Below are positions 14,935-57,585 of a DNA stretch of 64,000 bases, piece after piece. This stretch comes from Minisyncoccota bacterium (GTDB taxonomy: Bacteria > Patescibacteriota > Minisyncoccia > Phycocordibacterales > UBA9973). Location of the stretch: contig JBAZVG010000001.1 in NCBI GenBank assembly GCA_041661005.1, positions 6,019 to 70,018 on the forward strand. The letters run 5' to 3'. The notes beneath the pieces are model-generated. The model searched no databases, was not told the origin of the DNA, and saw only the letters and a list, made by a program, of their open reading frames with translations. How positions within the stretch are numbered: the first letter of the stretch is position 1; every line of letters starts with the position of its first letter. A program made the translations under genes and the position numbers.

Positions 14935-15720
14935 TTAGAGTTTTAAATCTAATAGCCACTTCAGAAAAAGTTTCACTTCGTTCTGATTTTTCATGTACCA
15001 TTTTGCGGTACTGGTATTAGATTTTCCTACTCTGATAGTGATTCCCTTTGAAAGGGCATAGAATGCATCCTCATCTGTTTTACTGTCACCAATATAGATT
15101 GGCTTAAATTTGATTTTGTTTTTTTTGTTTAAGTATTTTAAGGCCAGTCTAGCTATGTCACCTTTCGTCCAATTTAAGCTAGGGACTATATCAATAGTTT
15201 CCTTATCGTGAAAAATTTTAATCACTGGTCTTTTTCTAACGTTTTTTAAAAATTTTTTTAACCATTTTTTAAAAAATTTCTTATCTTTAACTGGCATTAA
15301 ATGATAATGAAAAGTTACCGAGTATTTTTTTTCTTCTATTATCAACGATGGGTAAGTGTCTTTTATTTTTTTTAGAGTTTCATGAAATTGTTCGAGTTGA
15401 TCTGTTATAAGTTTTGGTAATATTTTATTTTTTAATTTCCCATCAAAATTCCACTCTAAACCATGACTAGCGCCATAGATGAAATTATTAACACCAACTT
15501 TTTTTATTATTACATTAAATGAACGTCCAGTGATGATAACAACCGGAAATACTTTGTTAATTTTTTTTAAAATACTTCGAGTCTCTTTTGTAATATAGGC
15601 ATTTTCAGGTTTTTTCACGATGGGAGATATGGTGCCATCAAAATCAAGCAAAAGAGCAATGTTTTTGTAATTTTTAATTACACCTTCTATTTCATGTAAT
15701 CTGGAGAATATGTACTTCAT
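14935..15720 (-). CDS. otsB: Trehalose-6-phosphate phosphatase (HAD family)
   Basis: LLLDFDGTISPIV (DxDGT motif I), ITGRS, GDSKTDEDAF (motif III). Directly downstream of otsA. Confidence 0.75.
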   Translation of the reverse strand: MKYIFSRLHEIEGVIKNYKNIALLLDFDGTISPIVKKPENAYITKETRSILKKINKVFPVVIITGRSFNVIIKKVGVNNFIYGASHGLEWNFDGKLKNKILPKLITDQLEQFHETLKKIKDTYPSLIIEEKKYSVTFHYHLMPVKDKKFFKKWLKKFLKNVRKRPVIKIFHDKETIDIVPSLNWTKGDIARLALKYLNKKNKIKFKPIYIGDSKTDEDAFYALSKGITIRVGKSNTSTAKWYMKNQNEVKLFLKWLLDLKL

Positions 15721-15725
15721 TAGTT

Positions 15726-17963
15726 TTAAAGTTCAACTATAGCTTTGAGAAGTTCCGCTGCCCAGCGATAAATATTGTAGTTTTTTACGCTACTTCTCAT
15801 AGTTTTCATTCTTCTGGTTTGTTCTACGGGTGCCATAATAATTCCTTTATATATAGCATCACCAATTTCTTTTGTACTATAAGGATTAATAATTAAAGCA
15901 CCTTTAAGGTCATAAGAAGCACCGGTAAATTGACTTAAAATGAGTACCCCCAGCTCATCGTTTCTTTCTGCTACGTATTCTTTAGAAACTAGATTCATAC
16001 CGTCATGTAAAGAAGTAACAACACAAACGTTTGCTAATTTATAAAGTGAGTTGATATCTGGGTGACTGTATTGAATCATTTCAAGAACAATGGGTTGCCA
16101 TTCCTTTGTTCCGAATTTTTTATTGATTCGTTCTGCTTCTCGAGAAACGAGTTCTTTATATTCAAGATACTTTTCAATTTCAGAACGACAAGGTGATGCA
16201 ATTTGTAGAAAAGTAAAATGTTCACGATACTCCGGATGATTTTCAAGAAAATACTCAATACCTTTAAACCGTTCAGGAATTCCTTTAGCATAATCAAGTC
16301 TATCCACTCCGAGTCCTATAAATTTTGTTTTAATTTTTAGATTACTTAGTATTTTTTTACCTGGTAAAGTGGCGTTCTCAGAATCTTGTTCTTTGGTAAA
16401 ATCAACTCCAGTAGGGAATGATCTGATATATGAGGTGTGTTCGTCTTGAGTAATAGCGAATTTGTCAAAATCTATAAGTGACTCGACATTCTTTCCGACT
16501 GTGTCAATAAAATTATTTCCGAACTGTTGTGTATGAAAACCTATAACATCAGCACCAAGCATCCCTGTAAGAATTTCTTTTCTTTGTGGACAAATACTAA
16601 AAGCTTCTGCACTTGGCCATGGAGTATGCCAAAATATACCAATTCGTGCATCTGGACGACTTTTTTTGATCATTTGTGGCAAAAGGGTAAAATGATATTC
16701 GTTAACGATTATGATTGGTCTTTGAACATTTTTTATTTCAGAAAGCAGTATTTTCGCAAATTTTCCATTAACTTTTTTATACTCAATCCAATCTTCTTCC
16801 TTAAATATTGGTCTAGTGTGAGTGTTTAAACAAAGTGGGTATAGTCCCTCTGCTGAATAACTTTTATTGTATCCCTGTTCTTCTTTGTCGGTAAGCCAAA
16901 CTCTTTTTAAAGTATATTTTGGATTATCGGGAGGAACTTTAATAGTGTCATTTTCGTCTACTGTTTCTTTGTCGGCATCACCACTGCCGTGAGCAATCCA
17001 CATTCCTCCACAAGCTTCCATCAGTGGTTCAAGAGCCGTTAGAACTCCACCTGCTTGAGAGAAGTAATAGATACCATCTTTTCCTTTTTTGTGTGTATAT
17101 GGTTCTCCCTTGAAGACTAGAAAAACTTTCTGGTCTTTCAAATACGCTTTTACAAATTCTTTTAATCGTTCCGCTGTCCATGGAGTATCAAGTTTTTCTA
17201 AGCGCATTCGCGCTTCTTCGCTGGCTGACGATCGCGCTTGGAGCAGACTATTTGTCATGTGGGTGATCTCTTTCGCTAAAGGTTTGAAGAAGGAATATTT
17301 CGCTGTATCTTTAAAGATTTCATTTTTTCCACCCATGCGGATTTTTTTGATGGAGTCGACTAGACGAACGACTTGGCGGAAAACAAAGAATCTGAGGATT
17401 ATAAAAATAGTGATTGAGAATATTATTATTTGAACTATCAATCTTATTAGATTTCCTCTCCAAATTTCACCAATGGTTGTATTTATATATCCCGCATTTT
17501 GCACGATCATCAAGGCTCCCAAAATACTGCCCTCATCATTGTGCAATGGATCGACAAATACGTATCGCGATTCTCCGTCCGCGTCAAAAAAATCACTCTT
17601 TGGTGTGTTGCTGTCCATGGCGTCAGAAATTGATTTTGTATTTTCAATTATTGTTTTTGGCAATCCTGAAGAAGTTGCCAGGAGCGTCCCCTTGTTGTCA
17701 TAAAGGGCGATTCCTGCCAATCGTTCACGGTTAGCGAACTTGTTAACGATTTTTTGCAGAGATGTTTGGAGAGTTGCTTCTCCAGAATTGACATACGAAG
17801 GTTCCACCGATTCTTTTAGACTATCAGCTAAAAGTGAAGCTCGTTGTTCCAGGTTGATAGTCAACGTTGCGCGCTCTTCATTGACTTGTTTGAGGTTAAG
17901 AAAAAATGAAACTACAGCCACGGTCACCACCACACTACCGATGATAGCGAAAATATATCTCAT
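15726..17963 (-). CDS. otsA: Trehalose-6-phosphate synthase (GT20) with ~250-aa N-terminal membrane/extracytoplasmic extension
   Basis: The C-terminal 480 aa have the GT20 hallmarks IVNEYHFTLLP, FWHTPWPS, GADVIGFHT. The N-terminus has two TM helices bracketing a ~160-aa predicted outside segment. Confidence 0.8.
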   Translation of the reverse strand: MRYIFAIIGSVVVTVAVVSFFLNLKQVNEERATLTINLEQRASLLADSLKESVEPSYVNSGEATLQTSLQKIVNKFANRERLAGIALYDNKGTLLATSSGLPKTIIENTKSISDAMDSNTPKSDFFDADGESRYVFVDPLHNDEGSILGALMIVQNAGYINTTIGEIWRGNLIRLIVQIIIFSITIFIILRFFVFRQVVRLVDSIKKIRMGGKNEIFKDTAKYSFFKPLAKEITHMTNSLLQARSSASEEARMRLEKLDTPWTAERLKEFVKAYLKDQKVFLVFKGEPYTHKKGKDGIYYFSQAGGVLTALEPLMEACGGMWIAHGSGDADKETVDENDTIKVPPDNPKYTLKRVWLTDKEEQGYNKSYSAEGLYPLCLNTHTRPIFKEEDWIEYKKVNGKFAKILLSEIKNVQRPIIIVNEYHFTLLPQMIKKSRPDARIGIFWHTPWPSAEAFSICPQRKEILTGMLGADVIGFHTQQFGNNFIDTVGKNVESLIDFDKFAITQDEHTSYIRSFPTGVDFTKEQDSENATLPGKKILSNLKIKTKFIGLGVDRLDYAKGIPERFKGIEYFLENHPEYREHFTFLQIASPCRSEIEKYLEYKELVSREAERINKKFGTKEWQPIVLEMIQYSHPDINSLYKLANVCVVTSLHDGMNLVSKEYVAERNDELGVLILSQFTGASYDLKGALIINPYSTKEIGDAIYKGIIMAPVEQTRRMKTMRSSVKNYNIYRWAAELLKAIVEL

Positions 17964-18083: not shown

Positions 18084-18539
18084 ATGGCTATGGCTCATTA
18101 TGCAGAAAACAGGAAAGCGCATTTTAATTATGAGATCTTGGAAAAATACGAAGCCGGTATTGAACTTTTGGGTTCCGAGGTGAAGTCTGTGCGAGGGGGA
18201 CAAATGTCTCTAGAGGGAGCTTTTGTCATCATCCGCGGGGGCGAGTCATTTTTAATCAATGCCAATGTCCCGCCTTATCAAGCTAAAAATGCGCCAAAGG
18301 ATTACGACGCGCTTCGCAATCGAAAACTTTTGCTTACAAAAAAAGAAATTGTCGAACTTGCAGGAAGTGAGAAGAATAAAAGTTTGACAATTGTGCCAAT
18401 TTCAGTGTATAATAAAGGTAGGAAAATCAAAATAGAAATCGCTTTAGTTAAAGGCAAGAAGAAATTTGATAAACGAGAGACACTCAAGAAACGCGATACT
18501 GATCGCGAGCTTAGACGCGAGATGAGGGGAAAAGAATAA
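18084..18539 (+). CDS. smpB: SsrA-binding protein
   Basis: AENRKAHFNYEILEKYEAGIELLGSEVKSVR is the conserved SmpB N-terminus. Confidence 0.9.
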   Translation: MAMAHYAENRKAHFNYEILEKYEAGIELLGSEVKSVRGGQMSLEGAFVIIRGGESFLINANVPPYQAKNAPKDYDALRNRKLLLTKKEIVELAGSEKNKSLTIVPISVYNKGRKIKIEIALVKGKKKFDKRETLKKRDTDRELRREMRGKE

Positions 18540-18676: not shown

Positions 18677-19077
18677 GGGGATGCAAGGCATAGACAGTTG
18701 GACTTTTGTCATTGATGCATACTGAGAATGGACGTAATCTCGTAAAAATTCGTCCAATAGCTTAATTGCAAAATTAGCTTCCAAAGTGAAAGCGGCAGTC
18801 TCTCCATACTTCGGTATGAATGACTTTGCTTTCGCTTCAGTTTCCGCTTCGGCGTAACTGATGTCTCTCTTATAGACTTCCGATATATAAGGGCAGGCAC
18901 AATATTATCGGGATAGGAGAAAGACTGTTCTGACTTTCTTTCGAAACAAAGGAACTCGATTAAAAAATATTTGGCTCGTTTAAGAATTTTTTAATTTAAA
19001 CAAAAAAGCGCGCTATGTATGTAGACTTCTTTACAAAAACCTTCTGCACGGGGATTCGATTTCCCCCATCTCCACCA
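18677..19077 (+). ncRNA. ssrA: tmRNA (ssrA), one-piece, CCA encoded
   Basis: 5' ggggatg pairs with 3' catctcc, including a G3:U70 wobble (the Ala identity element). T-arm gggga-ttcgatt-tcccc, then A-CCA. An internal ORF ...NDFAFASVSASA-TAA is a plausible tag. Located 137 nt downstream of smpB. Confidence 0.75.
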
Positions 19078-21666: not shown

Positions 21667-22039
21667 ATATATTCCCTTAGCATATACTTGCTTCAGCGTC
21701 TTTCCTTTGTTGGAATGACGTTTTAATTTCCGCCAGGGGCGGATAAATAACTCTCTTTGACAATAGAATGAATTATTGAGAACAGGTGCAAGTCTGTTCT
21801 GTTTTTTTGAGTAAGCCCCGACGTAAAGTCGGGGTCCCGACCCTGAAATTTAATTTAGGCGTCGGGATAGAAATAATTTTTAGAGCAAAAGATTGAACTC
21901 TAACAAGTAACAAAAATAATACTGAGGAGCGCAAGCGACGGATGTACTGTTTTTTGTTTTGTTTCGTTCCTAAATCAAAATGCTTTGCATTTTGATCGGA
22001 CGATCCGCCTTTGGCGGATTTAGTCTGTAACTTTTATTT

Positions 22040-23590
<1,551 letters not shown>

Positions 23591-23874
23591 TTGAAAACTG
23601 TCCCAATTTTTATTTATAAAAATTGAGGATCCCGCCATAGGCGGGATCCTGGTCTCGCCCCGCGAGACTGGACTAATTGAGTCGGTATTGTGTCGCTCAA
23701 TTGACGACACAATAGTCTAAGTATGTTGTGGACTTAAAGAAACATATTGACAGAGAGGAAAGACTCTTAAGTTAAAAAGAACGAAACAAAACAAAGAACA
23801 GTTCACCCCGCCATGGCGGGGCAAGCAAACAAAAATACCTCGCGCAAGCGGGGTATTTTTGTTATAATTTTATT

Positions 23875-40766: not shown

Positions 40767-42059
40767 ATGAAAAATTTTCAGATTGTAACTATAATCGTAT
40801 TCATTGCTCTAGCTGTTTTTGGCGTTTTGGTTTTTTCCGGCGCGATCCCGATTGGGGACGACAATACTCCCGGAGGATTGGGTACTGTAGTTTTATGGGG
40901 AACGATAAATGGAACTACATTGGCGCCGCTCTTGGAAGAGTTTAATAATGTTAATCCGACTTTTACAGTAAAATATGAACAAAAGGGGATTAATAATTTT
41001 GATCAGGAGCTGCTTGAAGCGCTGGCTAGCGGTGTGGGACCGGACATGTTTTTCTTGCCCGATGATCTCGCGTTTCATTATGCCAATAAAATTTTCCCTA
41101 TCCCATACGAGAGTTATCCTCTAGTCTCTTTTAAGAACAATTTTGCAAGCGCAGGCGAAGTATTTTTGACTTCACGCGGTATTTTAGCTTTTCCATTGTC
41201 TATTGATCCACTGATGATGTATTACAATCGTAGCCAGCTGGATGCTAATGGAATTATTCGCCCGCCAGTTTTATGGGATGATCTGGTTGATATGGTGCCG
41301 AAACTTACCAAGAAAGATGATTCAAATAAAATATCCAAAAGCGCGGTTGCGTTGGGGCATTTTTCAAATGTTACCCATGCCAAAGACATTTTGTCCGCTC
41401 TTTTTATGCAGACGGGGAATAGCATTGTCACGGAGCAAAATGGGGTTTTCAATACAAACCTTGATACGCCCAATCCAAAATACAACCTCGCATCGATCTT
41501 AAAATTTTACACTGGTTTTGCCGACCCAAACAACAGAGATCTATATTCCTGGAATAAATCATTTCCTAATTCCAGTGATTCATTTTCCAGAGAAGATTTG
41601 ACGTTTTATTTCGGATTTGCGAGCGAACTTGTGCCCTTGATAAATAAAAATCCCAATCAAGATTTGGCTGTCGCGCCTATTCCGCAAATCAAAAATTCGA
41701 ATTTCAAATTGACCACGGCGCAAGTGATGGGGATAGCACTACTATCATCATCTAAGAATTTTAATACAGCTTTTACAGCAGCGAGCCTCATGGCTACAGG
41801 AGATTTTGCTTCCAAGTTTGCTGTCGCTTTAGGGGTGGCGCCAGCCCGTCGCGACCTGCTCAAGGTGAAGCCAACAGACGCTTATTCCCCAATTTTTTAT
41901 GATTCAGCTCTCTATGCAAAAAGCTGGCTTGACCCTAGAGAAAAGGATACAGACAACATCTTCCGTAACATGATCGATGGAGTGCTATCGAACAACATGA
42001 CTGTCCAAAGCGCGATATCTGATGCCAGCGCGAAAATTAATTTATTATTGCAGAGATAA
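40767..42059 (+). CDS. Extracellular solute-binding protein (ABC transporter, family 1-like)
   Basis: N-terminal TM/lipobox-like anchor; 430 aa with SBP_bac_1-like composition. No cognate permease lies adjacent. Confidence 0.55.
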   Translation: MKNFQIVTIIVFIALAVFGVLVFSGAIPIGDDNTPGGLGTVVLWGTINGTTLAPLLEEFNNVNPTFTVKYEQKGINNFDQELLEALASGVGPDMFFLPDDLAFHYANKIFPIPYESYPLVSFKNNFASAGEVFLTSRGILAFPLSIDPLMMYYNRSQLDANGIIRPPVLWDDLVDMVPKLTKKDDSNKISKSAVALGHFSNVTHAKDILSALFMQTGNSIVTEQNGVFNTNLDTPNPKYNLASILKFYTGFADPNNRDLYSWNKSFPNSSDSFSREDLTFYFGFASELVPLINKNPNQDLAVAPIPQIKNSNFKLTTAQVMGIALLSSSKNFNTAFTAASLMATGDFASKFAVALGVAPARRDLLKVKPTDAYSPIFYDSALYAKSWLDPREKDTDNIFRNMIDGVLSNNMTVQSAISDASAKINLLLQR

Positions 42060-42099: not shown

Positions 42100-42915
42100 A
42101 TGCAAATTCAAGAAATAAAAAAAAACGCTATTCACTCCCGCAAACCAATTTTGTTATTTTGGCTATCTATCATTGTTGCAGTCGGACTTTTGAGTCCTAT
42201 AACAGAAATAAATGCGCAGGCGTCGAGGAAGGCACCGTGTTTTATCCCCAATGGGGACGGGACAGGCGGTAGAGTTTTAACGATGAATCGACAGGAATGC
42301 GAATCGTTTTTTGGAACATTTGATGCCACTTCGGCTCCAGCACGGGAGATAAGGGGTGAAAATCCTAGCGATATTGACTGCATTCTCTATGACGCGGATG
42401 GGGTATCAAATCCTAGAATTGTAAGGATGACTCGAATTGTATGTGAATCCTATCATGGAACACCTAGTGCAGCGAATCTTGGCACGGGTCAACCTGCCAC
42501 TGGTACTAATGTTAATTCGGCTCCAGTTGTCGCTCCCACTCAGTCTGTTACTGTATTTTCTTTTGCAGAGATAGACACGGATAAACCAGATGTTGAGGGA
42601 GGCTTGGTGCCCTGTGGTCATCCGGATGCTCAAGGTAATATAACTAACCCCTGTAGTTTCAAGGATGCTCTAACTCTCATAAACACCATAATAAAGTTTA
42701 TTCTTTTTGATTTAGCGATTCCGATTGCCGCCGTGATGTTCGCTTATGCGGGTTTTAAACTGGTAACTTCCGGAGGTAGCTCTGAGGCTAGGGGGCAGGC
42801 GAAAAATATTTTCTCCAACGCAGTTTTTGGGCTGGTGATTGCCGCTGGCGCTTGGCTCATTATCAGGACGATATTATCAGTTTTGGGTTATCAAGGGGCT
42901 TGGATTGGATTTTAA
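42100..42915 (+). CDS. Secreted protein, paralog 1 of a five-member tandem family with a C-terminal two-TM pilin-like module
   Basis: Signal peptide, Cys-containing N-domain, C-terminal IPIAAVMFAYAGFKLVTSGGSSEARGQAKNIFSNAVFGLVIAAGAW. Nucleotides 42130..42500 are near-identical to 42975..43345. Confidence 0.45.
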   Translation: MQIQEIKKNAIHSRKPILLFWLSIIVAVGLLSPITEINAQASRKAPCFIPNGDGTGGRVLTMNRQECESFFGTFDATSAPAREIRGENPSDIDCILYDADGVSNPRIVRMTRIVCESYHGTPSAANLGTGQPATGTNVNSAPVVAPTQSVTVFSFAEIDTDKPDVEGGLVPCGHPDAQGNITNPCSFKDALTLINTIIKFILFDLAIPIAAVMFAYAGFKLVTSGGSSEARGQAKNIFSNAVFGLVIAAGAWLIIRTILSVLGYQGAWIGF

Positions 42916-42951
42916 TGTGGTGTATAATACCGTTGTGAATTTTTTAATTTT

Positions 42952-43686
42952 ATGAGGAGAAATTTTAACAAACCAATTTTGTTATTTTGGCTATCTATCA
43001 TTGTTGCAGTCGGACTTTTGAGTCCTATAACAGAAATAAATGCGCAGGCGTCGAGGAAGGCACCGTGTTTTATCCCCAATGGGGACGGGACAGGCGGTAG
43101 AGTTTTAACGATGAATCGACAGGAATGCGAATCGTTTTTTGGAACATTTGATGCCACTTCGGCTCCAGCACGGGAGATAAGGGGTGAAAATCCTAGCGAT
43201 ATTGACTGCATTCTCTATGACGCGGATGGGGTATCAAATCCCAGAATTGTAAGGATGACTCGAATTGTATGTGAATCCTATCATGGAACACCTAGTGCAG
43301 CGAATCTTGGCACGGGTCAACCTGCCACCAGTACTAATATTAATTCGTCTCCAGTTGTCGCTCCCACTCAGTCTGTTACTTATGATTCATCTCCATGTAT
43401 TGGCAAGATCTGCAACCCTCTGGGTACTAAAGGGGTAGCCAGTATCCCAGCTTTCATTCAAAAACTTTTAGAAGGCGTCTTGCAGATTGGCATACCCATC
43501 GTGGCGCTCGCTATCATTTATTGTGGTTTCCTGTTTGTGGCGGCTCGGGGTAATTCGGAAAAATTAGGCAAAGCCAAAGATGCCCTGCTCTATACCCTGA
43601 TCGGCGCGGCGATACTTTTGGGGTCGTGGGCTATTGCGCAGATGATATCCGCTACTGTCACTGGACTTGGGGCTGGAGTAGTATAA
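42952..43686 (+). CDS. Paralog 2 (recent tandem duplicate of paralog 1 over the first ~125 codons)
   Basis: Identical N-domain. C-terminal GIPIVALAIIYCGFLFVAARGNSEKLGKAKDALLYTLIGAAILLGSWAI. Confidence 0.45.
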   Translation: MRRNFNKPILLFWLSIIVAVGLLSPITEINAQASRKAPCFIPNGDGTGGRVLTMNRQECESFFGTFDATSAPAREIRGENPSDIDCILYDADGVSNPRIVRMTRIVCESYHGTPSAANLGTGQPATSTNINSSPVVAPTQSVTYDSSPCIGKICNPLGTKGVASIPAFIQKLLEGVLQIGIPIVALAIIYCGFLFVAARGNSEKLGKAKDALLYTLIGAAILLGSWAIAQMISATVTGLGAGVV

Positions 43687-43709
43687 TTTTTATTATAGAT
43701 TAAAATAAT

Positions 43710-44159
43710 ATGAAAAAAATCTTACCATATCTTCTGATGCTGACTATCCTTGTGGGACTTCTTAGTCCAGTAACGGTGACGCGTGGAGCTGATGTTTTTG
43801 ATCCTACTAATAGATCTAATACAGTTAATGTGTCAGAATCGTCAACTTCGTCCACTTTTGTGACTTGTAGGTTGGATAATAAACCAAAACTTCAGCATCT
43901 TTTAAATTACGCCACTTGCATCATAAATACGTCGGTGATTCCTTTGATTTTTGCTTTGGCGATTGTGATGTTTGTCTGGGGAGTGGTGCAGTTTGTGATA
44001 AATAGCGACGACGAAGCAAAAAAGACTAAAGGCAAGATGTTTATGATTTGGGGCATCGTCGCTTTGACGGTGATGGTTTCGGTTTGGGGCTTGGTGGCGA
44101 TACTGGGAAATACTTTCGGCGTTAATACCGGCATTATTCCACAGGTCAAGTCCCCATAG
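43710..44159 (+). CDS. Paralog 3 of pilin-like family
   Basis: IPLIFALAIVMFVWGVVQFVINSDDEAKKTKGKMFMIWGIVALTVMVSVWGLVAILGNTFGVN. Confidence 0.45.
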   Translation: MKKILPYLLMLTILVGLLSPVTVTRGADVFDPTNRSNTVNVSESSTSSTFVTCRLDNKPKLQHLLNYATCIINTSVIPLIFALAIVMFVWGVVQFVINSDDEAKKTKGKMFMIWGIVALTVMVSVWGLVAILGNTFGVNTGIIPQVKSP

Positions 44160-44162
44160 TTG

Positions 44163-44228
44163 CCCCGTAGTGAATTTTGGCGAGGCGCAAAGCGCAAGTT
44201 ATAAACATCGCCAAAATCTACTACGGGG
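44163..44228. repeat. REP-like long hairpin repeat, copy 1
   Basis: ccccgtagtgaattttggcga ... tcgccaaaatctactacgggg: a 21-bp stem with one G-U and one A-C mismatch that are conserved in all copies. Confidence 0.6.
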
Positions 44229-44256
44229 TTGCTTTGTTTTATTTATGTTTGTGGTA

Positions 44257-44334
44257 CCCCGTAGTGAATTTTGGCAACATGTTTTAGATTGGTTAGTTTT
44301 AAACAAACTAACCTTGCCAAAATCTACTACGGGG
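44257..44334. repeat. REP-like long hairpin repeat, copy 2 (different loop)
   Basis: ccccgtagtgaattttggcaa ... ttgccaaaatctactacgggg. Confidence 0.6.
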
Positions 44335-44386
44335 TGGTATTATTAAGGAATATTATTAATATTATTATTTAGAGTCGTAAAAAATT

Positions 44387-44794
44387 ATGAAAAAGAAATT
44401 AGTTGTTTTGTCAGGTTTTGTTTTAGGTTTGGCTCCGGTTGTAGCGTTGGCGCAAATTAATCTTGGTGGTGGTCCTACCGGAAGTTGCGTTCTTGGTAAT
44501 GGAGGTACAATTTTTGGTATATTTTGCCGAGTTGGGCAGATTCTTAATTCCATTGTGCCCATATTGATTGCCCTAGGAATTGTTTACTTTGTTTGGGGAG
44601 TCATTTCTTATGTAATCGGTGGCGACGAAGAAGCAAAGAAGAAAGGAAGAGACAAAATAATCTATGGCATTATTGGTTTAGCTGTTATTGTTGCGGTCTG
44701 GGGGCTTGTGGGAATTTTAACTAGAACCTTTGGTGTTAATAATACATTTCAAGGAAATATTCCAACTATTCCTGTTCCCAATCAAGTTAATTAG
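44387..44794 (+). CDS. Paralog 4 of pilin-like family
   Basis: VPILIALGIVYFVWGVISYVIGGDEEAKKKGRDKIIYGIIGLAVIVAVWGLVGILTRTFGVNN. Confidence 0.45.
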   Translation: MKKKLVVLSGFVLGLAPVVALAQINLGGGPTGSCVLGNGGTIFGIFCRVGQILNSIVPILIALGIVYFVWGVISYVIGGDEEAKKKGRDKIIYGIIGLAVIVAVWGLVGILTRTFGVNNTFQGNIPTIPVPNQVN

Positions 44795-44810
44795 TATCAT
44801 TTCTAATGAT

Positions 44811-45140
44811 ATGGATATATTCTCCACCAATGTGGCTTATGCGGATGGGCGTTTTGACAAGTTTTTGACGAATGTCAACACAGAAATCATCAATCCACTC
44901 ATACTGTTCCTTTTTGCTCTCGCGATGGTGTTTTTCCTCTACGGCGTGTTTGAGTTTATTGCAAATGGCGCCAATGATGAGAAAAAGACAACTGGGAAAA
45001 GTCACATGATTTGGGGTGTTGTCGGGCTTACCATTATGATGGGGGTTTGGGCGATTCTTAATATTATTTTGAGTACGTTTGATATTCCAAAAAGTCAGAT
45101 AAACCCAGAACAGGGAACTGTGACTTTGCCACCAAAATAG
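44811..45140 (+). CDS. Paralog 5 of pilin-like family (no obvious signal peptide)
   Basis: NPLILFLFALAMVFFLYGVFEFIANGANDEKKTTGKSHMIWGVVGLTIMMGVWAIL. Start chosen at Met 44811 downstream of the paralog 4 stop. Confidence 0.4.
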   Translation: MDIFSTNVAYADGRFDKFLTNVNTEIINPLILFLFALAMVFFLYGVFEFIANGANDEKKTTGKSHMIWGVVGLTIMMGVWAILNIILSTFDIPKSQINPEQGTVTLPPK

Positions 45141-45211
45141 TAGAAAGATTCTATAGAAACAAAAAGGCGATTCAGAACGAATCGCCTTTTTGTTTTGTTA
45201 CTAGATTAACT

Positions 45212-45973
45212 TTAGTCGTGTTTCAACGGAGCTGTGTGATATTTTTCACCCATGCCATAAACTTTCCTAACCAAGATGACTATCACGAGAATCAGTATCG
45301 CAAAGAATATCCATTGAACCAAACCAGAAGGGTGTACACCGTTTGATCCAAAAATAGCGTTGGATGCGAGATTGTTGAAATTTTCTGTTTCACTTCCAGA
45401 TGGAATCGTGTCAACAAAATTCGTACCGGTGTCGTTTGCTTTGTTGTTATTTGACGTGGTTTTAGAAGAGGCAACGGAGTTACTTACTTTTATGGTGAAA
45501 AAAACTGCATTGGAATGTCCTCCTCCCGGAGCGCTGTTAAAAACGGTGATGAAGAATCCGCCATTGTTCAGGTATTTATAAGTGTCCTCTCCGGTTATTT
45601 GGATCAAGAGACGAGAGCTATCGATAAAAGTAGTTGGTCGGTTTGAGCCGTTTATTCTGACAACGGAATTTGAGACAAAACCTTTTCCAGTTATGGTTAT
45701 GGTTTTTGTGCCTATGCCGATATTACTAGAGCTTGGATTCACAGAAACAATAATCGGTGTCGGGTTATAGGATGGTGCATTATCTGTTTCTGCCGATTTT
45801 CTCAAGTCTATATAGCCATTATAATAGTTGGGGTAAGGTGCTTCAGAACTTACTTTTATGGGCATAACAGCAAGTCCAAAAATTGAAACAAGAAACAAAG
45901 CAGGAAATACATAACTTATTGAGTTTTTATTTATATTTTTCATACTATTATAGTATAGCATATTCAGGTTCAA
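45212..45973 (-). CDS. Cell-surface protein with IPT/TIG-like Ig-fold domain and C-terminal TM anchor
   Basis: PIIVSVNPSSSNIGIGTKTITITGKGFVSNSVVRINGSN is IPT/TIG-like. Signal peptide and a C-terminal hydrophobic anchor. Confidence 0.45.
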   Translation of the reverse strand: MNLNMLYYNSMKNINKNSISYVFPALFLVSIFGLAVMPIKVSSEAPYPNYYNGYIDLRKSAETDNAPSYNPTPIIVSVNPSSSNIGIGTKTITITGKGFVSNSVVRINGSNRPTTFIDSSRLLIQITGEDTYKYLNNGGFFITVFNSAPGGGHSNAVFFTIKVSNSVASSKTTSNNNKANDTGTNFVDTIPSGSETENFNNLASNAIFGSNGVHPSGLVQWIFFAILILVIVILVRKVYGMGEKYHTAPLKHD

Positions 45974-46049
45974 AAGTCAATAGCACATGACCCGCATTTA
46001 ACCTGTTAGTAGACAGATCGAGAGAGTTAATTTTACACTCAATCAGATC

Positions 46050-46436
46050 TTAGTAAGGATATGAATAGGAATAGCTTGGGTATGAATAGTTTCCATAATA
46101 ACCGTAGTCATAACTTTCGTAAGGCATGTAAATGTAGTTATTTCCATAGTAATATGAAGGGGCGGAATAAGTAGAATAATAAGAGCTACCACAGCTATAA
46201 CCACATCCATAATCGTAGTTATTATAATCATAGCCGTAATTACTGCCTATGTAATAGGATGAGGGTTGAGAGTAAGAATAATAAGATGATCCGTTGCAAG
46301 CAAATCCGCAATTATAACCATTGTAATAACCATTAGAAATATATTTATTGTTGTAATAACTATTATTGTGCTTGGCATAAACAGGAACAGCCACAAAAGA
46401 CACTATTATTATGACTATACTAAGAAATTTTTTCAT
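46050..46436 (-). CDS. Secreted Tyr/Gly/Ser/Asn-rich low-complexity protein (~35% Tyr)
   Basis: Signal peptide, then YYNNKYISNGYYNGYNCGFACNGSSYYSYSQPSSYYIGSNYGYDYNNYDYGCGYSCGSSYY... Confidence 0.4.
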   Translation of the reverse strand: MKKFLSIVIIIVSFVAVPVYAKHNNSYYNNKYISNGYYNGYNCGFACNGSSYYSYSQPSSYYIGSNYGYDYNNYDYGCGYSCGSSYYSTYSAPSYYYGNNYIYMPYESYDYGYYGNYSYPSYSYSYPY

Positions 46437-46527
46437 ATGAATATGCTAACATTTTTAAATTTAAAAGTCAATGGCCCCGTGCAACAAGTTGCGCCGGGGC
46501 CATAGAGATGATTTGAGCTGCTTGGTT

Positions 46528-47355
46528 TTACCAAGCCCCTACCACTCTGGTAGGGTTAGGGTCGCATATGTACCCATTGTAGGGTTGCCCGAAGACAACC
46601 CTACCGCCCCAATGTGGGTACACCACTACGGGTGGCGGTGGCGGTGTCGTCCAGTATACCACTGGAGGCGGGCAGGCTGGTGGTGGCATGACTACCACAG
46701 GTTGCGGGGGGCAGACCATCGTTGGTTGTGCGGTCTGTGTGACCGCGACGCTGTTCGTCGCCGTCGCCGAAGCTTGCGCGCTGCCGGCCACGTTGTTGAT
46801 GATGATCGGTGCCGGCGCTGGCAGGTACACCACCGTGTTGGTAATCCAGTTGGTGACTACGGTCGTCGGGGGTGAAGGGGGTGTCGTCGGCAGAGGGGTT
46901 GTAGATGGGAAGAGGTTTTTCAACCTTTCAAAATACGACACCCTTCCGGCTTCATGACCGTTTCTCTGTCCCTGGAGGTAAAGGAACCTGCCCATCGCTG
47001 GGCTAAGGCCTTGAAAGTGGGTCTCCAGGACATTCGTCCCGGACATTCTCACCTCCACGGCTTCGAGTTCCTCCCCCTTGGGGAGAATCTTGACTATTTC
47101 CGGTTCCGCTGGTTTGGTGTCGGCAGCCCTGGAGGAGGATACGCAGGATGTGAGCCCCCATACTAGCAGGCCCAACAATCCCAGTGTTCCAACTGCCAAA
47201 CCGATTTTGGTCTTTCCACCGAGACTGTTGAAGGTGGTGGGGGTAGGAGGGGTATCGTTCATAGTTTGTTTCGTTGTTTGTTTGTTGTTTCCTGCAAGTT
47301 TGTCCTGCAAGACAGCAACCGAGAAAAGTTTATTTTCTAAGCTATTGTCTTGCAA
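46528..47355 (-). CDS. Pro/Thr/Val-rich membrane-anchored protein encoded in a locally GC-rich (~60%) segment
   Basis: One N-terminal TM (IGLAVGTLGLLGLLVWGL), then a PPxP-rich region (PPPACPPPVVYWTTPPPPPVVVYP). GC content is strikingly above the surrounding ~38%. Confidence 0.4.
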   Translation of the reverse strand: MQDNSLENKLFSVAVLQDKLAGNNKQTTKQTMNDTPPTPTTFNSLGGKTKIGLAVGTLGLLGLLVWGLTSCVSSSRAADTKPAEPEIVKILPKGEELEAVEVRMSGTNVLETHFQGLSPAMGRFLYLQGQRNGHEAGRVSYFERLKNLFPSTTPLPTTPPSPPTTVVTNWITNTVVYLPAPAPIIINNVAGSAQASATATNSVAVTQTAQPTMVCPPQPVVVMPPPACPPPVVYWTTPPPPPVVVYPHWGGRVVFGQPYNGYICDPNPTRVVGAW

Positions 47356-47474
47356 GAAAACATGGGCAAGAAAAACATTATGTAAAAGAACAGCTACTAC
47401 TCTATACTTTGGTAGTATAGCATATTAGAGTCCTATTGTCAAGCGTAGATTTATCTTGAAAATATCTATATTTT

Positions 47475-47714
47475 GTGGGCGAGGGGAGACTTGGTCAGGC
47501 ATAATTTTCTGCTGAAAATTTGCACGACCCTGCCTCTTCCGACCTAAAGTCGGAGTCCGGCTTTCTCGTCCTAAAATACTTCGTATTTTACCTCGTGGGC
47601 GAGGGGAGACTTGGTCAGGCATAATTTTCTGCTGAAAATTTGCACGACCCTGCCTCTTCCGACCTAAAGTCGGAGTCCGGCTTTCTCGTCCTAAAATACT
47701 TCGTATTTTACCTC
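47475..47714. repeat. Two perfect 120-bp tandem direct repeats, each beginning with the last 19 nt of tRNA-Leu(TAG) (gtgggcgaggggagacttg on this strand); the intact tRNA follows at 47716
   Basis: Read directly. Period is exactly 120 (47475, 47595, then the tRNA copy at 47715). Each unit also carries the aattttctgctgaaaattt motif and a ccgacctaaagtcggag hairpin. Confidence 0.75.
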
Positions 47715-47715
47715 G

Positions 47716-47797
47716 TGGGCGAGGGGAGACTTGAACTCCCACGGCTTGCGCCACCAGTTCCTAAGACTGGCGTGTTTACCAATTACACCACTCGCCC
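47716..47797 (-). tRNA. tRNA-Leu (anticodon TAG), type II
   Basis: Minus strand: acceptor gggcgag/ctcgccc, anticodon stem ccagt/actgg, loop ctTAGga, long variable arm, T-arm gggag-ttcaagt-ctccc. Confidence 0.85.
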
Positions 47798-47831
47798 AAA
47801 ACTTATTTGACTAGGTCTTGCCTAGTCACTG

Positions 47832-47904
47832 TGCGTCCAGAAGGGATCGAACCTTCGACCTTATCCTTAAGAGGGATCTGCTCTACCAGCTGAGCTATGG
47901 ACGC
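47832..47904 (-). tRNA. tRNA-Lys (anticodon CTT)
   Basis: Minus strand: acceptor gcgtcca/tggacgc perfect, D-arm gctc/gagc, anticodon loop ctCTTaa (a 27:43 G-A mismatch is tolerated), T-arm gaagg-ttcgatc-ccttc. Confidence 0.75.
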
Positions 47905-47943
47905 AAATTATTTATTTTCTAACTAAAAATTTTTATTTAAAAT

Positions 47944-48025
47944 AAAAATTTTGTGCCCGGAGTGGGAGTCGAACCCACATCCCTTACGAGACACCATTTT
48001 AAGTGGTGCGCGTATACCAATTCCG
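47944..48025 (-). tRNA. tRNA-Leu (anticodon TAA), type II
   Basis: Minus strand: acceptor gcccgga/tccgggc, anticodon stem cacca/tggtg, loop ctTAAaa, long variable arm, T-arm gtggg-ttcgact-cccac. Confidence 0.85.
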
Positions 48026-48046
48026 CCATCCGGGCAATCTACAAAA

Positions 48047-48562
48047 TTAACTTTTTATGAAAAGATTATTTCTATCCTTCATCTTATTATGCTGTTTTGT
48101 ATTTCTTCCTCGATGTGTTGTTTGTAGACTGTGACAATTTGGACACAGAATTCTTAAGTTTTCTAATCTGTTGTCATGCCTATCTCCATTGATGTGATCT
48201 AACTCCAGGGGTACTCTACCATCAATCGACATTTTAGCCCAACTACACTCTTCACATTTAGGTTCCTTTAGTTTAACTAAAAAAAGTCTTTTTTTCAACT
48301 TAAAGCTTTGATAGGTACTATTTTTCACTAAAATATCTTTTAAAGCTATGACTGGTATAAATGGCCTTTTTAATCCTTTATTCCAGAGCATTCCTGTAAA
48401 ATGTTTTGTAGATATTTTATATTCTCTTATATATTTTTTTACTTGATCATAATTTCCACCTGCGGGCACTAATCCTAAAATTTTTATTACGTTTCTGTAA
48501 CTTTTAGAATCTTTAACTGCATTTTTTAATTGCTCTTCCGACCAACTTCTTTTTTTAGGCAT
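48047..48562 (-). CDS. HNH homing-type endonuclease (free-standing)
   Basis: ELDHINGDRHDNRLENLRILCPNCH (HNH motif with Zn-binding Cys pairs CEEC...CPNC). It lies between tRNA-Leu(TAA) and tRNA-Cys. Confidence 0.75.
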   Translation of the reverse strand: MPKKRSWSEEQLKNAVKDSKSYRNVIKILGLVPAGGNYDQVKKYIREYKISTKHFTGMLWNKGLKRPFIPVIALKDILVKNSTYQSFKLKKRLFLVKLKEPKCEECSWAKMSIDGRVPLELDHINGDRHDNRLENLRILCPNCHSLQTTHRGRNTKQHNKMKDRNNLFIKS

Positions 48563-48634
48563 AAATTAAAAGGGCACACCGATAGTGTATCATACAATCG
48601 CTTGTATACCTAATAAAATTAGAAGTAATTAAAC

Positions 48635-48709
48635 TGGAGGCCTGGGGCGGAATTGAACCGCCGTATATTCCTTTTGCAGAGGAATGCCTTACCACTTGGC
48701 TACCAGGCC
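48635..48709 (-). tRNA. tRNA-Cys (anticodon GCA), CCA encoded, discriminator U73
   Basis: Minus strand: acceptor ggcctgg/ccaggcc, anticodon stem ttcct/aggaa, loop ctGCAaa, T-arm ggcgg-ttcaatt-ccgcc, then T-CCA. Confidence 0.85.
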
Positions 48710-51262: not shown

Positions 51263-52552
51263 ATGCCCAAATCAAATAAAGGCTCGACAGAAAAAACAAG
51301 AAAAATATATTTAGATTATGCGTCCAGTGTGGAATCCAATCCAAGTTCTATACACATGGAAGGGGTGCAAGCCAGAGTCAGGCTTCAAAATGCGCGTAGA
51401 GAAGTTGCAGGTGTGCTTGGCGCAAAATCGGAAGAAATAATCTTTACCAGTGGAGGCACTGAGAGCAACAATCTTGCAATTCAAGGTATGGTTTTGTCTT
51501 TGCAGGGAAAAATGTTGCCCCATATTATAACAACAAACATCGAACACCCGTCTGTTCTTGAAACCTTTAAACTTCTTGAAAAAAGAAAACTTGCGCAAAT
51601 TTCCATAGTGCCCGTAGAAGCGAACGGCATTGTGGATCCAAAAAAAATAAAAAAAGAAATTAAAAAAAATACGGTTCTTGTGTCTGTGATGTATGCCAAT
51701 AATGAAATTGGCACTATCCAGCCCATAAGAGAAATTGCAAAAGAGATCAGACATTTTAGAAAGCAAAAGGAAAAGAAGAAAGGTTTTCTCAGGTCCTCGG
51801 TTCCCTGGGTCCCTCCCCCAGCCAGACCATTCCAAAACCTTTCTTCTTTTCCTTTTTTTCATACCGACGCAGTGCAAGCAGGAAACTATCTAGATTTGAA
51901 TGTAGAGAGATTGGGAGTGGATTTGCTCTCGCTTTCTGGTTCGAAAATTTTTGGTGGGGGTAAAGTTGGAGTGCTTTATAAAAAAAAATCTGTGCCTCTT
52001 GCAAATATATTTGGCGGGGGAAATCAAGAAATGGGATTACGTCCGGGCACGGAAAATTTGCCGGAGATTTTAAAATTTTCCAAGGCGCTTCAATTTACAC
52101 AGAAAGTAAAAGAAAAAGAGGCAAAGAGATTAACTAAACTTCGGGATTATTTTATCGCTTCGCTTCATCAAATTTTTTCCTCCTGCGTCCTTCTCGGATT
52201 ACCGAGTGGGACCCTCGGAAATAAAAAATTCGATGAAGCTTCACTCTTTGTAAATGGTGATTTAAAAGATAGATTGCCGAATAATATAAATATTACTATT
52301 CCAAATATTCCAAGCGATCTTTTGGTCATTGAGCTTTCAGCAAAAGGAATAATGTGTTCATCAAAAAGCGCTTGTGAATCCGGCGATGGCAAAGCGTCAT
52401 ATGTTATTAAAGCAATAAATAAAAATATTTCAGAAGAGGACGGCTCTTTGCGGTTTTCATTAGGAAGAGATACCACAAAAGCAGATATTGATTATACTGT
52501 TAAAGCTTTATCACAAATTTTGACTAAATTAGAAAAGTGGTACACCCGGTAG
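51263..52552 (+). CDS. Cysteine desulfurase (class V aminotransferase, NifS/IscS-like) carrying an in-frame ~30-aa insertion derived from a palindromic repeat
   Basis: SGGTESNNLAIQG, HTDAVQAG, SLSGSKIFGG (the PLP-Lys region), and catalytic-loop Cys in SSKSACESG. The segment RKQKEKKKGFLRSSVPWVPPPARPFQNLSSFPF precedes the conserved FHTDAVQ motif, where no insert is expected. Confidence 0.75.
   Translation: MPKSNKGSTEKTRKIYLDYASSVESNPSSIHMEGVQARVRLQNARREVAGVLGAKSEEIIFTSGGTESNNLAIQGMVLSLQGKMLPHIITTNIEHPSVLETFKLLEKRKLAQISIVPVEANGIVDPKKIKKEIKKNTVLVSVMYANNEIGTIQPIREIAKEIRHFRKQKEKKKGFLRSSVPWVPPPARPFQNLSSFPFFHTDAVQAGNYLDLNVERLGVDLLSLSGSKIFGGGKVGVLYKKKSVPLANIFGGGNQEMGLRPGTENLPEILKFSKALQFTQKVKEKEAKRLTKLRDYFIASLHQIFSSCVLLGLPSGTLGNKKFDEASLFVNGDLKDRLPNNINITIPNIPSDLLVIELSAKGIMCSSKSACESGDGKASYVIKAINKNISEEDGSLRFSLGRDTTKADIDYTVKALSQILTKLEKWYTR
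51765..51855. repeat. Palindromic element inside the cysteine desulfurase CDS: 22-bp inverted repeats (aaaaggaaaagaagaaaggtttt / aaaacctttcttcttttcctttt) flanking a 45-nt core homologous to the 12271..12318 core
   Basis: Read directly. Core tcaggtcctcggttccctgggtccctccccagccagaccattc. The flanking IRs are unrelated to those of the 12253 copy. Confidence 0.6.
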
Positions 52553-52616
52553 TGAATTTTGGTAAGGCACAAAGTGCAGCTCGCAAAACGAGCATTGCCA
52601 AAATCTACTAACCGGG
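52545..52616. repeat. REP-like long hairpin repeat, copy 4 (its first arm provides the desulfurase TAG stop codon)
   Basis: cccggtagtgaattttggtaaggcacaaagtgcagctcgcaaaacgagcattgccaaaatctactaaccggg. Confidence 0.6.
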
Positions 52617-56660: not shown

Positions 56661-57473
56661 ATGGTTAGACGTTGGACAAAAAAAGAAGAAGGCAAGTATC
56701 GATCAGAACTTTTTAAGATTTATGTTAAACAGAATAAAAGTTTGGGTGAGGTTTCAAAAATTTTAGATATATCGGAGCAAGCAGTTTTTCGAAGATTGGG
56801 GCGTTTGGGGATTAAAACACAACCGCATTTAAAAAAGAATTACTTAAAAAAGCGGATTGATGTACGAATTCCAGATAAATACTCTGAAGATCTGGCGGAA
56901 TTTTTTGGTATTATGCTTGGTGATGGGCATATAAGTCATTTTCAAGTTGTGGTTAGCTTGGGTAATAAAGAAGAAAAATATGCAGAATATGTCAAATCGC
57001 TTATCAAGAAAATATTTAAGACGAATGTAAAAATTTCCCTTCGAAGTAAGGGATACCGAGATGTTTATCTTGGTTCAGTGGCTATAACATCATGGCTCCT
57101 TAAGGAAGGGCTTGTTCACAATAAGGTCAAATCACAGGTCGATGTGCCAATGTGGATATTTAGTAAAAATAATTTTATAAAGCGTTTTTTAAGGGGATTT
57201 TTTGACACTGACGGATCGGTATACAAATTAAAATATGGTATTCAAGTGTCCTTTTGCAATCGGTCTTTACCGATACTTCTATCTTTACAAAAGATGCTTA
57301 AAAAGTTAGAATACAATCCGTCACGTTTAAGTTCGTATAATATGTATCTTACTAAAAGGGAAGATGTTAAAAGATTTTTTCAGGAGATCAAACCATCTAA
57401 TCCTAAACATGTAAGTAGATATTTAAACATTTCAAACAACATGCGTCGGTCGGATAGTGGCTATTCCAGGTGA
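56661..57473 (+). CDS. LAGLIDADG-family homing endonuclease (two motifs, single-chain) with N-terminal HTH; free-standing
   Basis: Motif 1 LAEFFGIMLGDGHIS, motif 2 FLRGFFDTDGSVY, N-terminal SLGEVSKILDISEQAVFRRLGRLGI. The last 31 nt of the ORF overlap the tRNA-Tyr 5' end. Confidence 0.75.
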   Translation: MVRRWTKKEEGKYRSELFKIYVKQNKSLGEVSKILDISEQAVFRRLGRLGIKTQPHLKKNYLKKRIDVRIPDKYSEDLAEFFGIMLGDGHISHFQVVVSLGNKEEKYAEYVKSLIKKIFKTNVKISLRSKGYRDVYLGSVAITSWLLKEGLVHNKVKSQVDVPMWIFSKNNFIKRFLRGFFDTDGSVYKLKYGIQVSFCNRSLPILLSLQKMLKKLEYNPSRLSSYNMYLTKREDVKRFFQEIKPSNPKHVSRYLNISNNMRRSDSGYSR

Positions 57474-57524
57474 CTGTAAATCACCCGCCTTCGGGCATCG
57501 TTGGTTCGAGTCCAACCCGGCGCA
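57443..57524 (+). tRNA. tRNA-Tyr (anticodon GTA), type II
   Basis: Acceptor gcgtcgg/ccggcgc (one U-G), D-arm gga/tcc, anticodon stem ggtga/tcacc, loop ctGTAaa, long variable arm cgccttcgggcatc, T-arm gttgg-ttcgagt-ccaac, discriminator A. Confidence 0.8.
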
Positions 57525-57585
57525 CAATAAAAATCCACCTTTTTACTTCATGAAGTTTTCATCTATACTGTAATAGTATAGATAT

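Follow-up and report, generated by a model that had tools for sequence, protein, structure and literature searches.

A virB4-remote, conserved array of five VirB2-like pilin genes on a Paceibacteria (Nomurabacteria-like) chromosome

Do tandem genes that end in the same membrane module represent recently duplicated, diversifying surface proteins, or are they the separately maintained subunits of one apparatus? This question is raised by a 64,000-nucleotide stretch of a Minisyncoccota bacterium (GenBank assembly GCA_041661005.1, contig JBAZVG010000001.1, positions 6,019 to 70,018), the whole of which is referred to here as the window. Within positions 42100-45140, five plus-strand open reading frames (ORFs) carry a common C-terminal module of two helices. 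An earlier interpretation based on the letters of the DNA (the sequence-only reading) recognized in them the topology of VirB2/TrbC pilins of type IV secretion systems (T4SSs), and considered as an alternative a new family of surface proteins anchored by a membrane hairpin. We find that the feature is a further array of an already catalogued Patescibacteria pilin family, the architecture of the array being likewise already known. The five genes probably encode VirB2-like T4SS pilins that would be assembled, via a VirB4-type T4SS, into a pilus-like filament or conduit of this Paceibacteria (Nomurabacteria-like) member.

When the window was translated in all six frames, a hidden Markov model (HMM) of the module, built from the paralogs, matched exactly the five array ORFs (E 4e-32 to 3.6e-26), with no further match at E<=1. 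In the alignment, the module consists of a hydrophobic helix, a short loop that is first acidic and then basic, a second hydrophobic helix with an invariant Trp, and a short tail. The sequence-only reading was correct in placing this module at the end of all five ORFs, and every loop peptide that it quoted, as well as the conserved Trp, was found. Hydropathy profiles contain one N-terminal and two C-terminal hydrophobic segments in paralogs 1-4, in agreement with the earlier count of four signal peptides among the five proteins; paralog 5 has only the two C-terminal segments and no signal peptide. With paralog 5 excepted, hydropathy, alignment, and an AlphaFold2 model all point to a signal peptide with a predicted cleavage site followed by two hydrophobic helices that flank a short charged loop. 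The start of paralog 5 is most likely the ATG at 44811, as called by NCBI, and not the overlapping TTG at 44730.

All five proteins score above the gathering cut-off of the Pfam family PF18895 (T4SS_pilin; 29.8-43.8 bits vs. a cut-off of 26.6), and this family matches 52 of the 52 modules of the paralog 1 and paralog 2 types (P1/P2-type modules) collected from the window and its relatives. In searches with PF04956 (TrbC/VirB2; cut-off 27.9 bits), paralog 2 reached 25.0 bits (26.4 bits for the module alone) and paralog 1 reached 19.8 bits, both below the cut-off, and paralogs 3-5 gave no match. At E<=0.01, PF04956 matched 35 of the 52 P1/P2-type modules, the best with an E value of 3.3e-7. When the 52 modules were compared by hhalign with seven genuine plasmid VirB2/TrbC genes, each located between virB1 and virB3, 63 columns aligned in register over both helices (P 7.6e-4), at a probability of only 25%. 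The VirB2/TrbC-pilin reading is thus supported by the PF18895 matches of all five proteins and by the TrbC matches of the P1/P2-type modules. The proposal of a new family has to be abandoned: PF18895 is already curated, NCBI names paralogs 1, 2, and 4 'pilin' (paralogs 3 and 5 are 'hypothetical'), and arrays of this kind have been published. Paralog 4, which is identical to the NCBI protein 'MAG: pilin [Candidatus Paceibacterota bacterium]', has >1000 PF18895 homologues, mostly in Nomurabacteria.

Published surveys connect such pilins with T4SSs. A survey of 3,035 Patescibacteria assemblies found VirB4 in 2,417 of them (PMC12102498). Using PF18895, PF04956, and pilin HMMs from diderm T4SS classes as profiles, Quinonero-Coronel et al. 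(2025) reported VirB2-like pilins in 1,948 Patescibacteria assemblies, near virB4 in 1,135, and 441 arrays of 2-11 pilin genes with a mean within-array identity of 25% and a maximum of 54% (PMC12102498). According to the published tables, the assemblies of six relatives carrying the same array as the window are VirB4-positive (PMC12102498). For GCA_000999465.1, the genome of one relative (locus L033), proteins #126, #128, and #129 are annotated as VirB2/PrgF and flagged 'VirB4 proximity: No', CONJScan having assigned #128 to FATA_PrgF; on the basis of their tandem numbering, not of a sequence check, these three are taken to be the L033 array. In the same genome, VirB3, TrsD, and VirB4 are proteins #634-636, and another PF18895 pilin is #638. 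In Southlakia epibionticum, the predicted pilin subunits of the T4SS cluster are essential (Wang et al. 2023; PMC10633639), with the VirB2-like pilin array itself being essential within that cluster (PMC10633639; PMC12857230), and a pilus has been speculated to serve as a conduit for uptake from the host (PMC12857230).

Several points weigh against assigning the array to a T4SS pilus. As stated in the sequence-only reading, no T4SS or type IV pilus machinery was detected in the window, in which essentially all ORFs of >=110 amino acids (aa) outside larger genes were scanned, and the 10 kb flanking the array on each side contain no T4SS gene in any of the 80 relatives. Every window protein falls below the Pfam cut-off for classical VirB2/TrbC. 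The hhalign profile of the paralog 4 type (P4-type) has no similarity to VirB2/TrbC beyond the signal-peptidase site, and neither the P4-type nor the P1/P2-type alignment retrieved a pilin when used as a profile against PDB sequences. Pili have not been observed on any Patescibacterium, and the literature calls the role of the T4SS completely unknown. The division into major and minor subunits proposed below draws only on gene spacing and conservation. The structural comparison that the sequence-only reading had suggested was run and gave no pilin-specific result. In the AlphaFold2 model of paralog 4 (predicted local distance difference test score, pLDDT, 66), helices span residues 3-21, 42-77, and 81-114, the latter two forming the hairpin; Foldseek retrieved nothing from PDB below E 2.2 with this model, and the archaeal conjugative pilin 8dft_A ranked no higher than 17th (E 4.6). 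Because a helical hairpin matches thousands of unrelated structures, fold comparison is non-specific, neither supports nor refutes pilin homology, and was dropped as a test.

A rival reading, which we regard as unlikely, is that the proteins are channel subunits embedded in the membrane or wall as part of a monoderm T4SS, resembling PrgF or Mbov_0395 and forming no extended pilus. The sole NCBIfam signal for all five proteins is NF045849, the Mbov_0395 family of pilin-like conjugal transfer proteins of Mycoplasma integrative and conjugative elements, although the scores (17.7-31.2 bits) are below the 40-bit cut-off. The PrgF call of protein #128, an apparent array member, and the missing hhalign similarity of the P4-type profile to VirB2 point in the same direction, as does the nesting of Patescibacteria T4SSs in the monoderm MPF-FATA class, which is not known for pili (PMC12102498). 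However, the P1/P2-type modules match TrbC/VirB2 profiles, the length of some position-1 ectodomains (as much as about 880 aa) suggests exposure beyond the wall, and five conserved paralogs exceed the number found in known monoderm systems.

The history of the array was examined in relatives. A scan of one genome per species recovered 80 loci from metagenome-assembled genomes (MAGs) of Nomurabacteria/Paceibacteria, the best match being 84% identical, and together with a Logan contig of the window's own array (L001) a total of 81 loci were analysed. In essentially all relatives, the locus is arranged in the order of an S1 protein gene (minus strand) and genes for a metallo-beta-lactamase-fold protein, GyrA, a methyltransferase, a solute-binding protein (SBP), and the pilin array, which is followed by genes for a TIG-domain protein and IF-2, both on the minus strand. 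Five pilin genes are present in 52 of the 81 loci, six in 25, four in 3, and two in one locus on a truncated contig. The 425 modules cluster into exactly five groups, which correspond to the gene positions, and each window paralog falls into a separate group. Module identity is 0.58-0.68 within these orthogroups, compared with 0.12-0.49 among the window paralogs; the module of paralog 2, for instance, is 65-88% identical to those of 29 position-2 orthologs and only ~30% identical to that of paralog 1. The ratio of non-synonymous to synonymous substitution rates (dN/dS) of the modules is 0.05-0.20, as estimated by comparing the window with four relatives; dS in these comparisons is close to saturation or exceeds it. 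The five genes are anciently diverged and individually conserved positional orthologs across at least 77 species.

The presence of the modules in five positional orthogroups and their low dN/dS values contradict two suggestions of the sequence-only reading, namely, a recent duplication, which it raised for paralogs 1 and 2, and diversifying selection, as far as the modules are concerned. The genes are ancient, and only a 412-nt N-terminal cassette, described below, has been copied recently. The dN/dS values indicate purifying, not diversifying, selection on the modules; the earlier reading is right in part about the ectodomains, which are variable, those on the position-1 pilins of different species being unrelated. 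Since all five genes are kept under purifying selection, they probably have five different, non-redundant roles and are probably not interchangeable antigenic variants.

Conservation of the modules also bears on the alternative raised in the sequence-only reading, i.e. a family of surface proteins that is independent of any T4SS and uses the hairpin merely to anchor adhesin-like ectodomains. The array never adjoins T4SS genes in the window or in the 80 relatives, its surroundings are rich in genes for surface proteins (the SBP, a TIG/CoaZ protein, and Tyr-rich and Pro-rich secreted proteins), and the ectodomains of position 1 are variable. We nevertheless judge this explanation improbable: the proteins of the P2, P4, and P5 types and most of the P1 types have almost no ectodomain to anchor (median lengths ahead of the module of 17-53 aa, including the signal peptide, with a median of 17 aa in last-position orthologs), the conserved part is the hairpin itself and is under strong purifying selection, and the same Pfam family occurs inside essential T4SS clusters of other Patescibacteria and next to VirB4 in one relative (#638).

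At position 1, more than 120 residues, and up to 882, precede the module in 12 of 77 pilins. In the position-1 pilins of loci L021, L056, and L070 (464-966 aa), fn3-like repeats lie ahead of the PF18895 module, and in further position-1 pilins sequences without any Pfam domain are followed by stalks rich in Ser, Thr, Pro, and Asn; position 1 therefore carries variable ectodomains and is a hot spot for ectodomain gain. Among the position-2 pilins of 77 relatives, none has more than 97 aa before the module. In the window, paralogs 1 and 2 share an ectodomain built from a ~45-residue unit that contains two Cys and occurs twice (an internal duplication; motif C..(D/N)G....R(V/I).(T/R)M.R..CES(F/Y).GT), followed by a Gly/Thr/Pro-rich linker. 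In the AlphaFold2 model of full-length paralog 1 (pLDDT 48.8), each Cys repeat is predicted, at low confidence, to form a beta-hairpin and a helix. No homologue of this ectodomain was found by a word-index search or in the loci of the 80 relatives, and a HMMER scan of 1.84 billion representative sequences returned only two repeat proteins with compositional matches; in these searches, the window's own paralogs 1 and 2 were not returned although they are present in the collection. One weak 12-residue resemblance was detected in the position-1 pilin of locus L074 (E 0.006), and the resemblance of the Cys repeats of locus L060 was not significant.

The ectodomain is part of the cassette common to paralogs 1 and 2. 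The two copies form a gap-free tract at an offset of 828 nt with sharp edges, and the five mismatches (positions 42414, 42501, 42502, 42511, and 42520 of the first copy) include four within the final 52 nt. The ~370-bp identity noted in the sequence-only reading thus corresponds to a real tract, although the coordinates given for the second copy were displaced by ~17 nt and the first 360 nt contain one mismatch. That reading also stated that the two paralogs, which are 69% identical overall, diverge only in the C-terminal module; they differ in their first 14 and 6 residues, respectively, as well. Alignment with orthologs indicates that the tract replaces the native signal-peptide core in both genes, up to about the ancestral cleavage region. 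After the tract, paralog 1 continues as 'VFSFAE', corresponding to the 'SFAQ' with which the signal peptides of its orthologs end, and paralog 2 continues as 'SPC.GKICNP', the start of mature position-2 pilins.

Of the two origins left open earlier, recent duplication or gene conversion, the simplest reading of these features is a recent gene conversion of the cassette between paralogs 1 and 2, probably in the direction from gene 1 to gene 2. Whole-gene tandem duplication was rejected, as the identity covers only 412 of the 828 nt and each module has its own orthologs. By such a conversion, two different pilin modules would now display the same domain, and the cassette provides a concrete example of ectodomain movement between pilins. 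It is very improbable that the near-identity is a MAG assembly artefact, with a strain variant or collapsed repeat stitched in: full-length paralogs 1 and 2 are recorded only from the MAG and its IMG copy, and the Logan assembly breaks at 43351, inside the tract, but such a break is expected at a genuine repeat in short-read assemblies, the copies are in frame and differ at five positions, each is attached to a different module having its own orthologs, and the independently assembled contig L001, which equals window positions 43351-47504 at 100% and does not span the repeat, runs from the final 30 nt of the tract into paralog 2-specific sequence and so contains this junction.

Gene spacing is likewise conserved. 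In 75 loci, the SBP stop codon and the start of pilin 1 are separated by a median of 4 nt, and in some of them the two genes overlap by 4 nt. This tight packing upstream of the array suggests that the SBP gene is probably co-transcribed with the pilin genes, and the two are possibly linked in function; the SBP_bac_1 gene of the window is an orphan, with no ABC permease or ATPase gene nearby. Inside five-gene arrays, the median gaps are 5, 16.5, 103.5, and 12.5 nt, a long gap ahead of pilin 4 (median about 104-115 nt) being a conserved feature of the relatives. In the window, this spacer contains two tandem palindromes similar to repetitive extragenic palindromic (REP) elements. The palindrome arm CCCCGTAGTGAATTTTGGC occurs at 44163 and 44257 on the plus strand and at 44210 and 44316 on the minus strand; five arm matches were found, compared with 0.01 expected by chance, and a third copy of the palindrome lies just after an aminotransferase gene (51263-52552). 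The spacer RNA has a predicted folding energy of -88 kcal/mol (z = -8.8), and a promoter-like site (TTGCCA-18-TATTAT) is located at 44314-44343. The palindromes could serve in transcription termination or mRNA stabilisation, or they could be mobile elements. The conserved long gap, together with the fold and the promoter-like site, hints that pilins 4 and 5 may be expressed separately or differentially, but is no proof of it. A conserved promoter before pilin 4 was considered and rejected because consensus scans are not discriminating in this AT-rich DNA.

From the family membership, topology, conservation, synteny, and cassette transfer described above, we infer that the products may form a pilus in the following way. 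The pilins would be inserted into the cytoplasmic membrane by Sec/YidC with both ends outward and the charged loop in the cytoplasm, extracted by a monoderm T4SS of the VirB4 type encoded elsewhere in the genome, and assembled into a pilus-like filament or an envelope-spanning conduit for contact with the host of this presumed epibiont. The subunits would have distinct roles: the major subunit may be paralog 4, perhaps with paralog 5, behind their own spacer and promoter-like site, the others serving as minor or adaptor subunits. The position-1 pilin, and here paralog 2 also, would carry a variable surface ectodomain in the manner of an adhesin fused to a pilin, the 412-nt cassette with its signal-peptide core, orphan Cys-rich two-repeat domain, and linker having been copied by conversion, most likely from gene 1 to gene 2.

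A broader and more tentative possibility, which we consider doubtful at present, is that the SBP gene and the five pilin genes constitute one conserved virB4-remote module for a heteromeric, T4SS-dependent filament or conduit of five specialised subunits, in which the position-1 pilin is a modular adaptor whose host-facing ectodomain is exchanged rapidly from lineage to lineage. The ectodomain types known so far are fn3 repeats, orphan Cys-rich repeats, and low-complexity stalks; copying between paralogs by conversion, as in the window, could also occur. The tight coupling of the orphan SBP gene to the array would fit the published speculation on uptake from the host through a T4SS or pilus.

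Table 1. Coordinates of the pilin array, its associated elements, and its immediate neighbours (window positions unless a relative's locus is named)
Feature	Coordinates	Strand	Remarks
SBP_bac_1 membrane-anchored solute-binding protein	40767..42059	+	PF01547 E 1e-17; immediately upstream of the array
Pilin paralog 1, 271 aa	42100..42915	+	PF18895 34.1 bits, TrbC 19.8 bits; MFA6076499.1 'pilin'; position-1 orthogroup; signal peptide, Cys-rich two-repeat ectodomain, linker, Cys loop, two-helix module
Cassette copy 1	42141..42552	+	407/412 nt identical to copy 2; signal-peptide hydrophobic core, ectodomain, linker (paralog 1 residues 15-151)
Pilin paralog 2, 244 aa	42952..43686	+	PF18895 30.8 bits, TrbC 25.0 bits; MFA6076500.1 'pilin'; paralog 1-type cassette fused to position-2-type module
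Cassette copy 2	42969..43380	+	407/412 nt identical to copy 1
Pilin paralog 3, 149 aa	43710..44159	+	PF18895 37.3 bits; own orthogroup, 59 members
Pilin 3-4 spacer	44160..44386	.	Two ~70-nt palindromic hairpin elements and a promoter-like site
REP-like palindrome copies, ~70 nt	44163-44229, 44256-44335, 52545-52615		First two in tandem in the pilin 3-4 spacer
Pilin paralog 4, 135 aa	44387..44794	+	PF18895 43.8 bits; top-scoring member
Pilin paralog 5, 109 aa	44811..45140	+	PF18895 29.8 bits; MFA6076503.1, 109 aa
IPT/TIG (choice-of-anchor Z) surface protein	45212..45973	-	PF01833 E 4e-8; NF058597 E 7e-22; signal anchor, C-terminal transmembrane segment
Giant fn3-pilin fusions of relatives	L021 4808-7708 (966 aa); L056 3229-4662; L070 7094-8488		fn3-like repeats and PF18895

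The TIG gene is the convergent neighbour of the array and is found downstream of it in most relatives too; its product is regarded as genomic context and not as a component of the array system. In most relatives, one or two extra genes, often encoding SPFH/Band_7 proteins, lie between pilin 5 and the TIG gene; these are absent in the window, in which the TIG gene directly follows pilin 5. It is the first in a minus-strand run of genes for predicted surface or secreted proteins (45212-47355), which also includes a 128-aa protein rich in Tyr, Asn, and Gly that has a signal peptide but matches no family (46050-46436) and a 275-aa Pro-rich protein (46528-47355) with a local GC content of 0.46 compared with about 0.38.

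The rest of the window is an ordinary Patescibacteria chromosome that carries gyrA, secA, ftsH, mur ligase genes, infB, and clpB. The 16S rRNA gene (22033-23591) is unlinked: the 64-kb window contains neither a 23S nor a 5S gene, an arrangement that is common among genomes of the candidate phyla radiation (CPR). The genes for tmRNA (18677-19077) and smpB (18084-18539) are adjacent. A perfect 120-nt tandem repeat (47475-47733; 2.2 copies, 100% matches) abuts and overlaps the 3' end of tRNA-Leu(tag) (47715-47797, minus strand) and may have arisen through duplication of an integration site or of part of the tRNA; a long ORF at 47425-47754 (minus strand) probably just reads through it. Two endonuclease ORFs are located at tRNA genes: an HNH endonuclease ORF (48047-48562) amid a tRNA gene cluster (47715-48709) and a free-standing LAGLIDADG endonuclease ORF (56661-57473) that overlaps the start of tRNA-Tyr (57443-57525). 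A trehalose-6-phosphate synthase gene (15726-17963, minus strand; GT20 domain at residues 292-742) adjoins a trehalose phosphatase gene (14935-15720), and the N-terminal extension of the synthase, with weak, sub-threshold matches to Cache domains, may make it a sensor-enzyme fusion.

Among Patescibacteria, the T4SS and its VirB2-like pilins have been tested in one species and proved essential there for epibiotic growth. The present locus adds no new kind of system, and its additions are incremental: a fixed five-member orthologous set that is remote from virB4 and coupled to an SBP gene, ectodomain turnover at position 1, and one cassette conversion. Gene-by-gene conservation of the fixed set throughout a large Paceibacteria lineage favours distinct structural roles over redundancy of the antigenic-variation kind, and the targets that it raises, the identity of the major subunit and the binding partner of the ectodomain, are relevant to host contact in CPR bacteria.

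Compared with the VirB2/TrbC pilins of Gram-negative MPF-T systems (PF04956; e.g. Agrobacterium VirB2), the array proteins have the same signal peptide, two hydrophobic helices, and short charged loop, an in-register profile alignment over both helices, and sub-threshold to marginal PF04956 matches. They differ in scoring below the Pfam cut-off, in belonging to a monoderm, in the long N-terminal ectodomains of some members, in the lack of a signal peptide in one, and in the absence of adjacent virB1 and virB3, unlike the seven genuine genes used as references. The two-transmembrane proteins of the NF045849 Mbov_0395 and FATA_PrgF types are similar in size and topology, with weak but consistent NF045849 matches for all five proteins and a PrgF call for what appears, from tandem numbering, to be a relative's array protein; those proteins, however, are single-copy parts of mobile elements and not five-gene chromosomal arrays, and the scores obtained here are <40 bits. 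FimH of chaperone-usher pili is a two-domain adhesin-pilin, with a receptor-binding N-terminal domain and a pilin module. Paralog 1 and the fn3-bearing position-1 pilins may be analogous in that an N-terminal domain is fused to a pilin module, although the fold and assembly pathway of FimH are unrelated.

In the host-associated Bartonella and Anaplasma, tandem arrays of divergent VirB2 copies are thought to serve antigenic variation (as cited in PMC12102498); judged by that description, the present array differs in that its copies are separately conserved across species. Closest to it are the published VirB2-like arrays of Patescibacteria, such as the six-member pilin array of the S. epibionticum T4SS cluster SEML1_0006-0019, with which it shares PF18895, tandem divergent chromosomal pilin genes (2-11 genes) in a monoderm host-dependent bacterium, and low within-array identity (12-49% for the modules here vs. 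the published mean of 25%). In contrast to these arrays, it is located away from the virB4 cluster, beside gyrA, methyltransferase, and SBP genes, and some of its members have large ectodomains. The overall identity of paralogs 1 and 2 exceeds the published within-array maximum because of their common cassette. Finally, its genes are positional orthologs under purifying selection, which argues against simple turnover of the antigenic-variation type and tempers the published view of such arrays along those lines.

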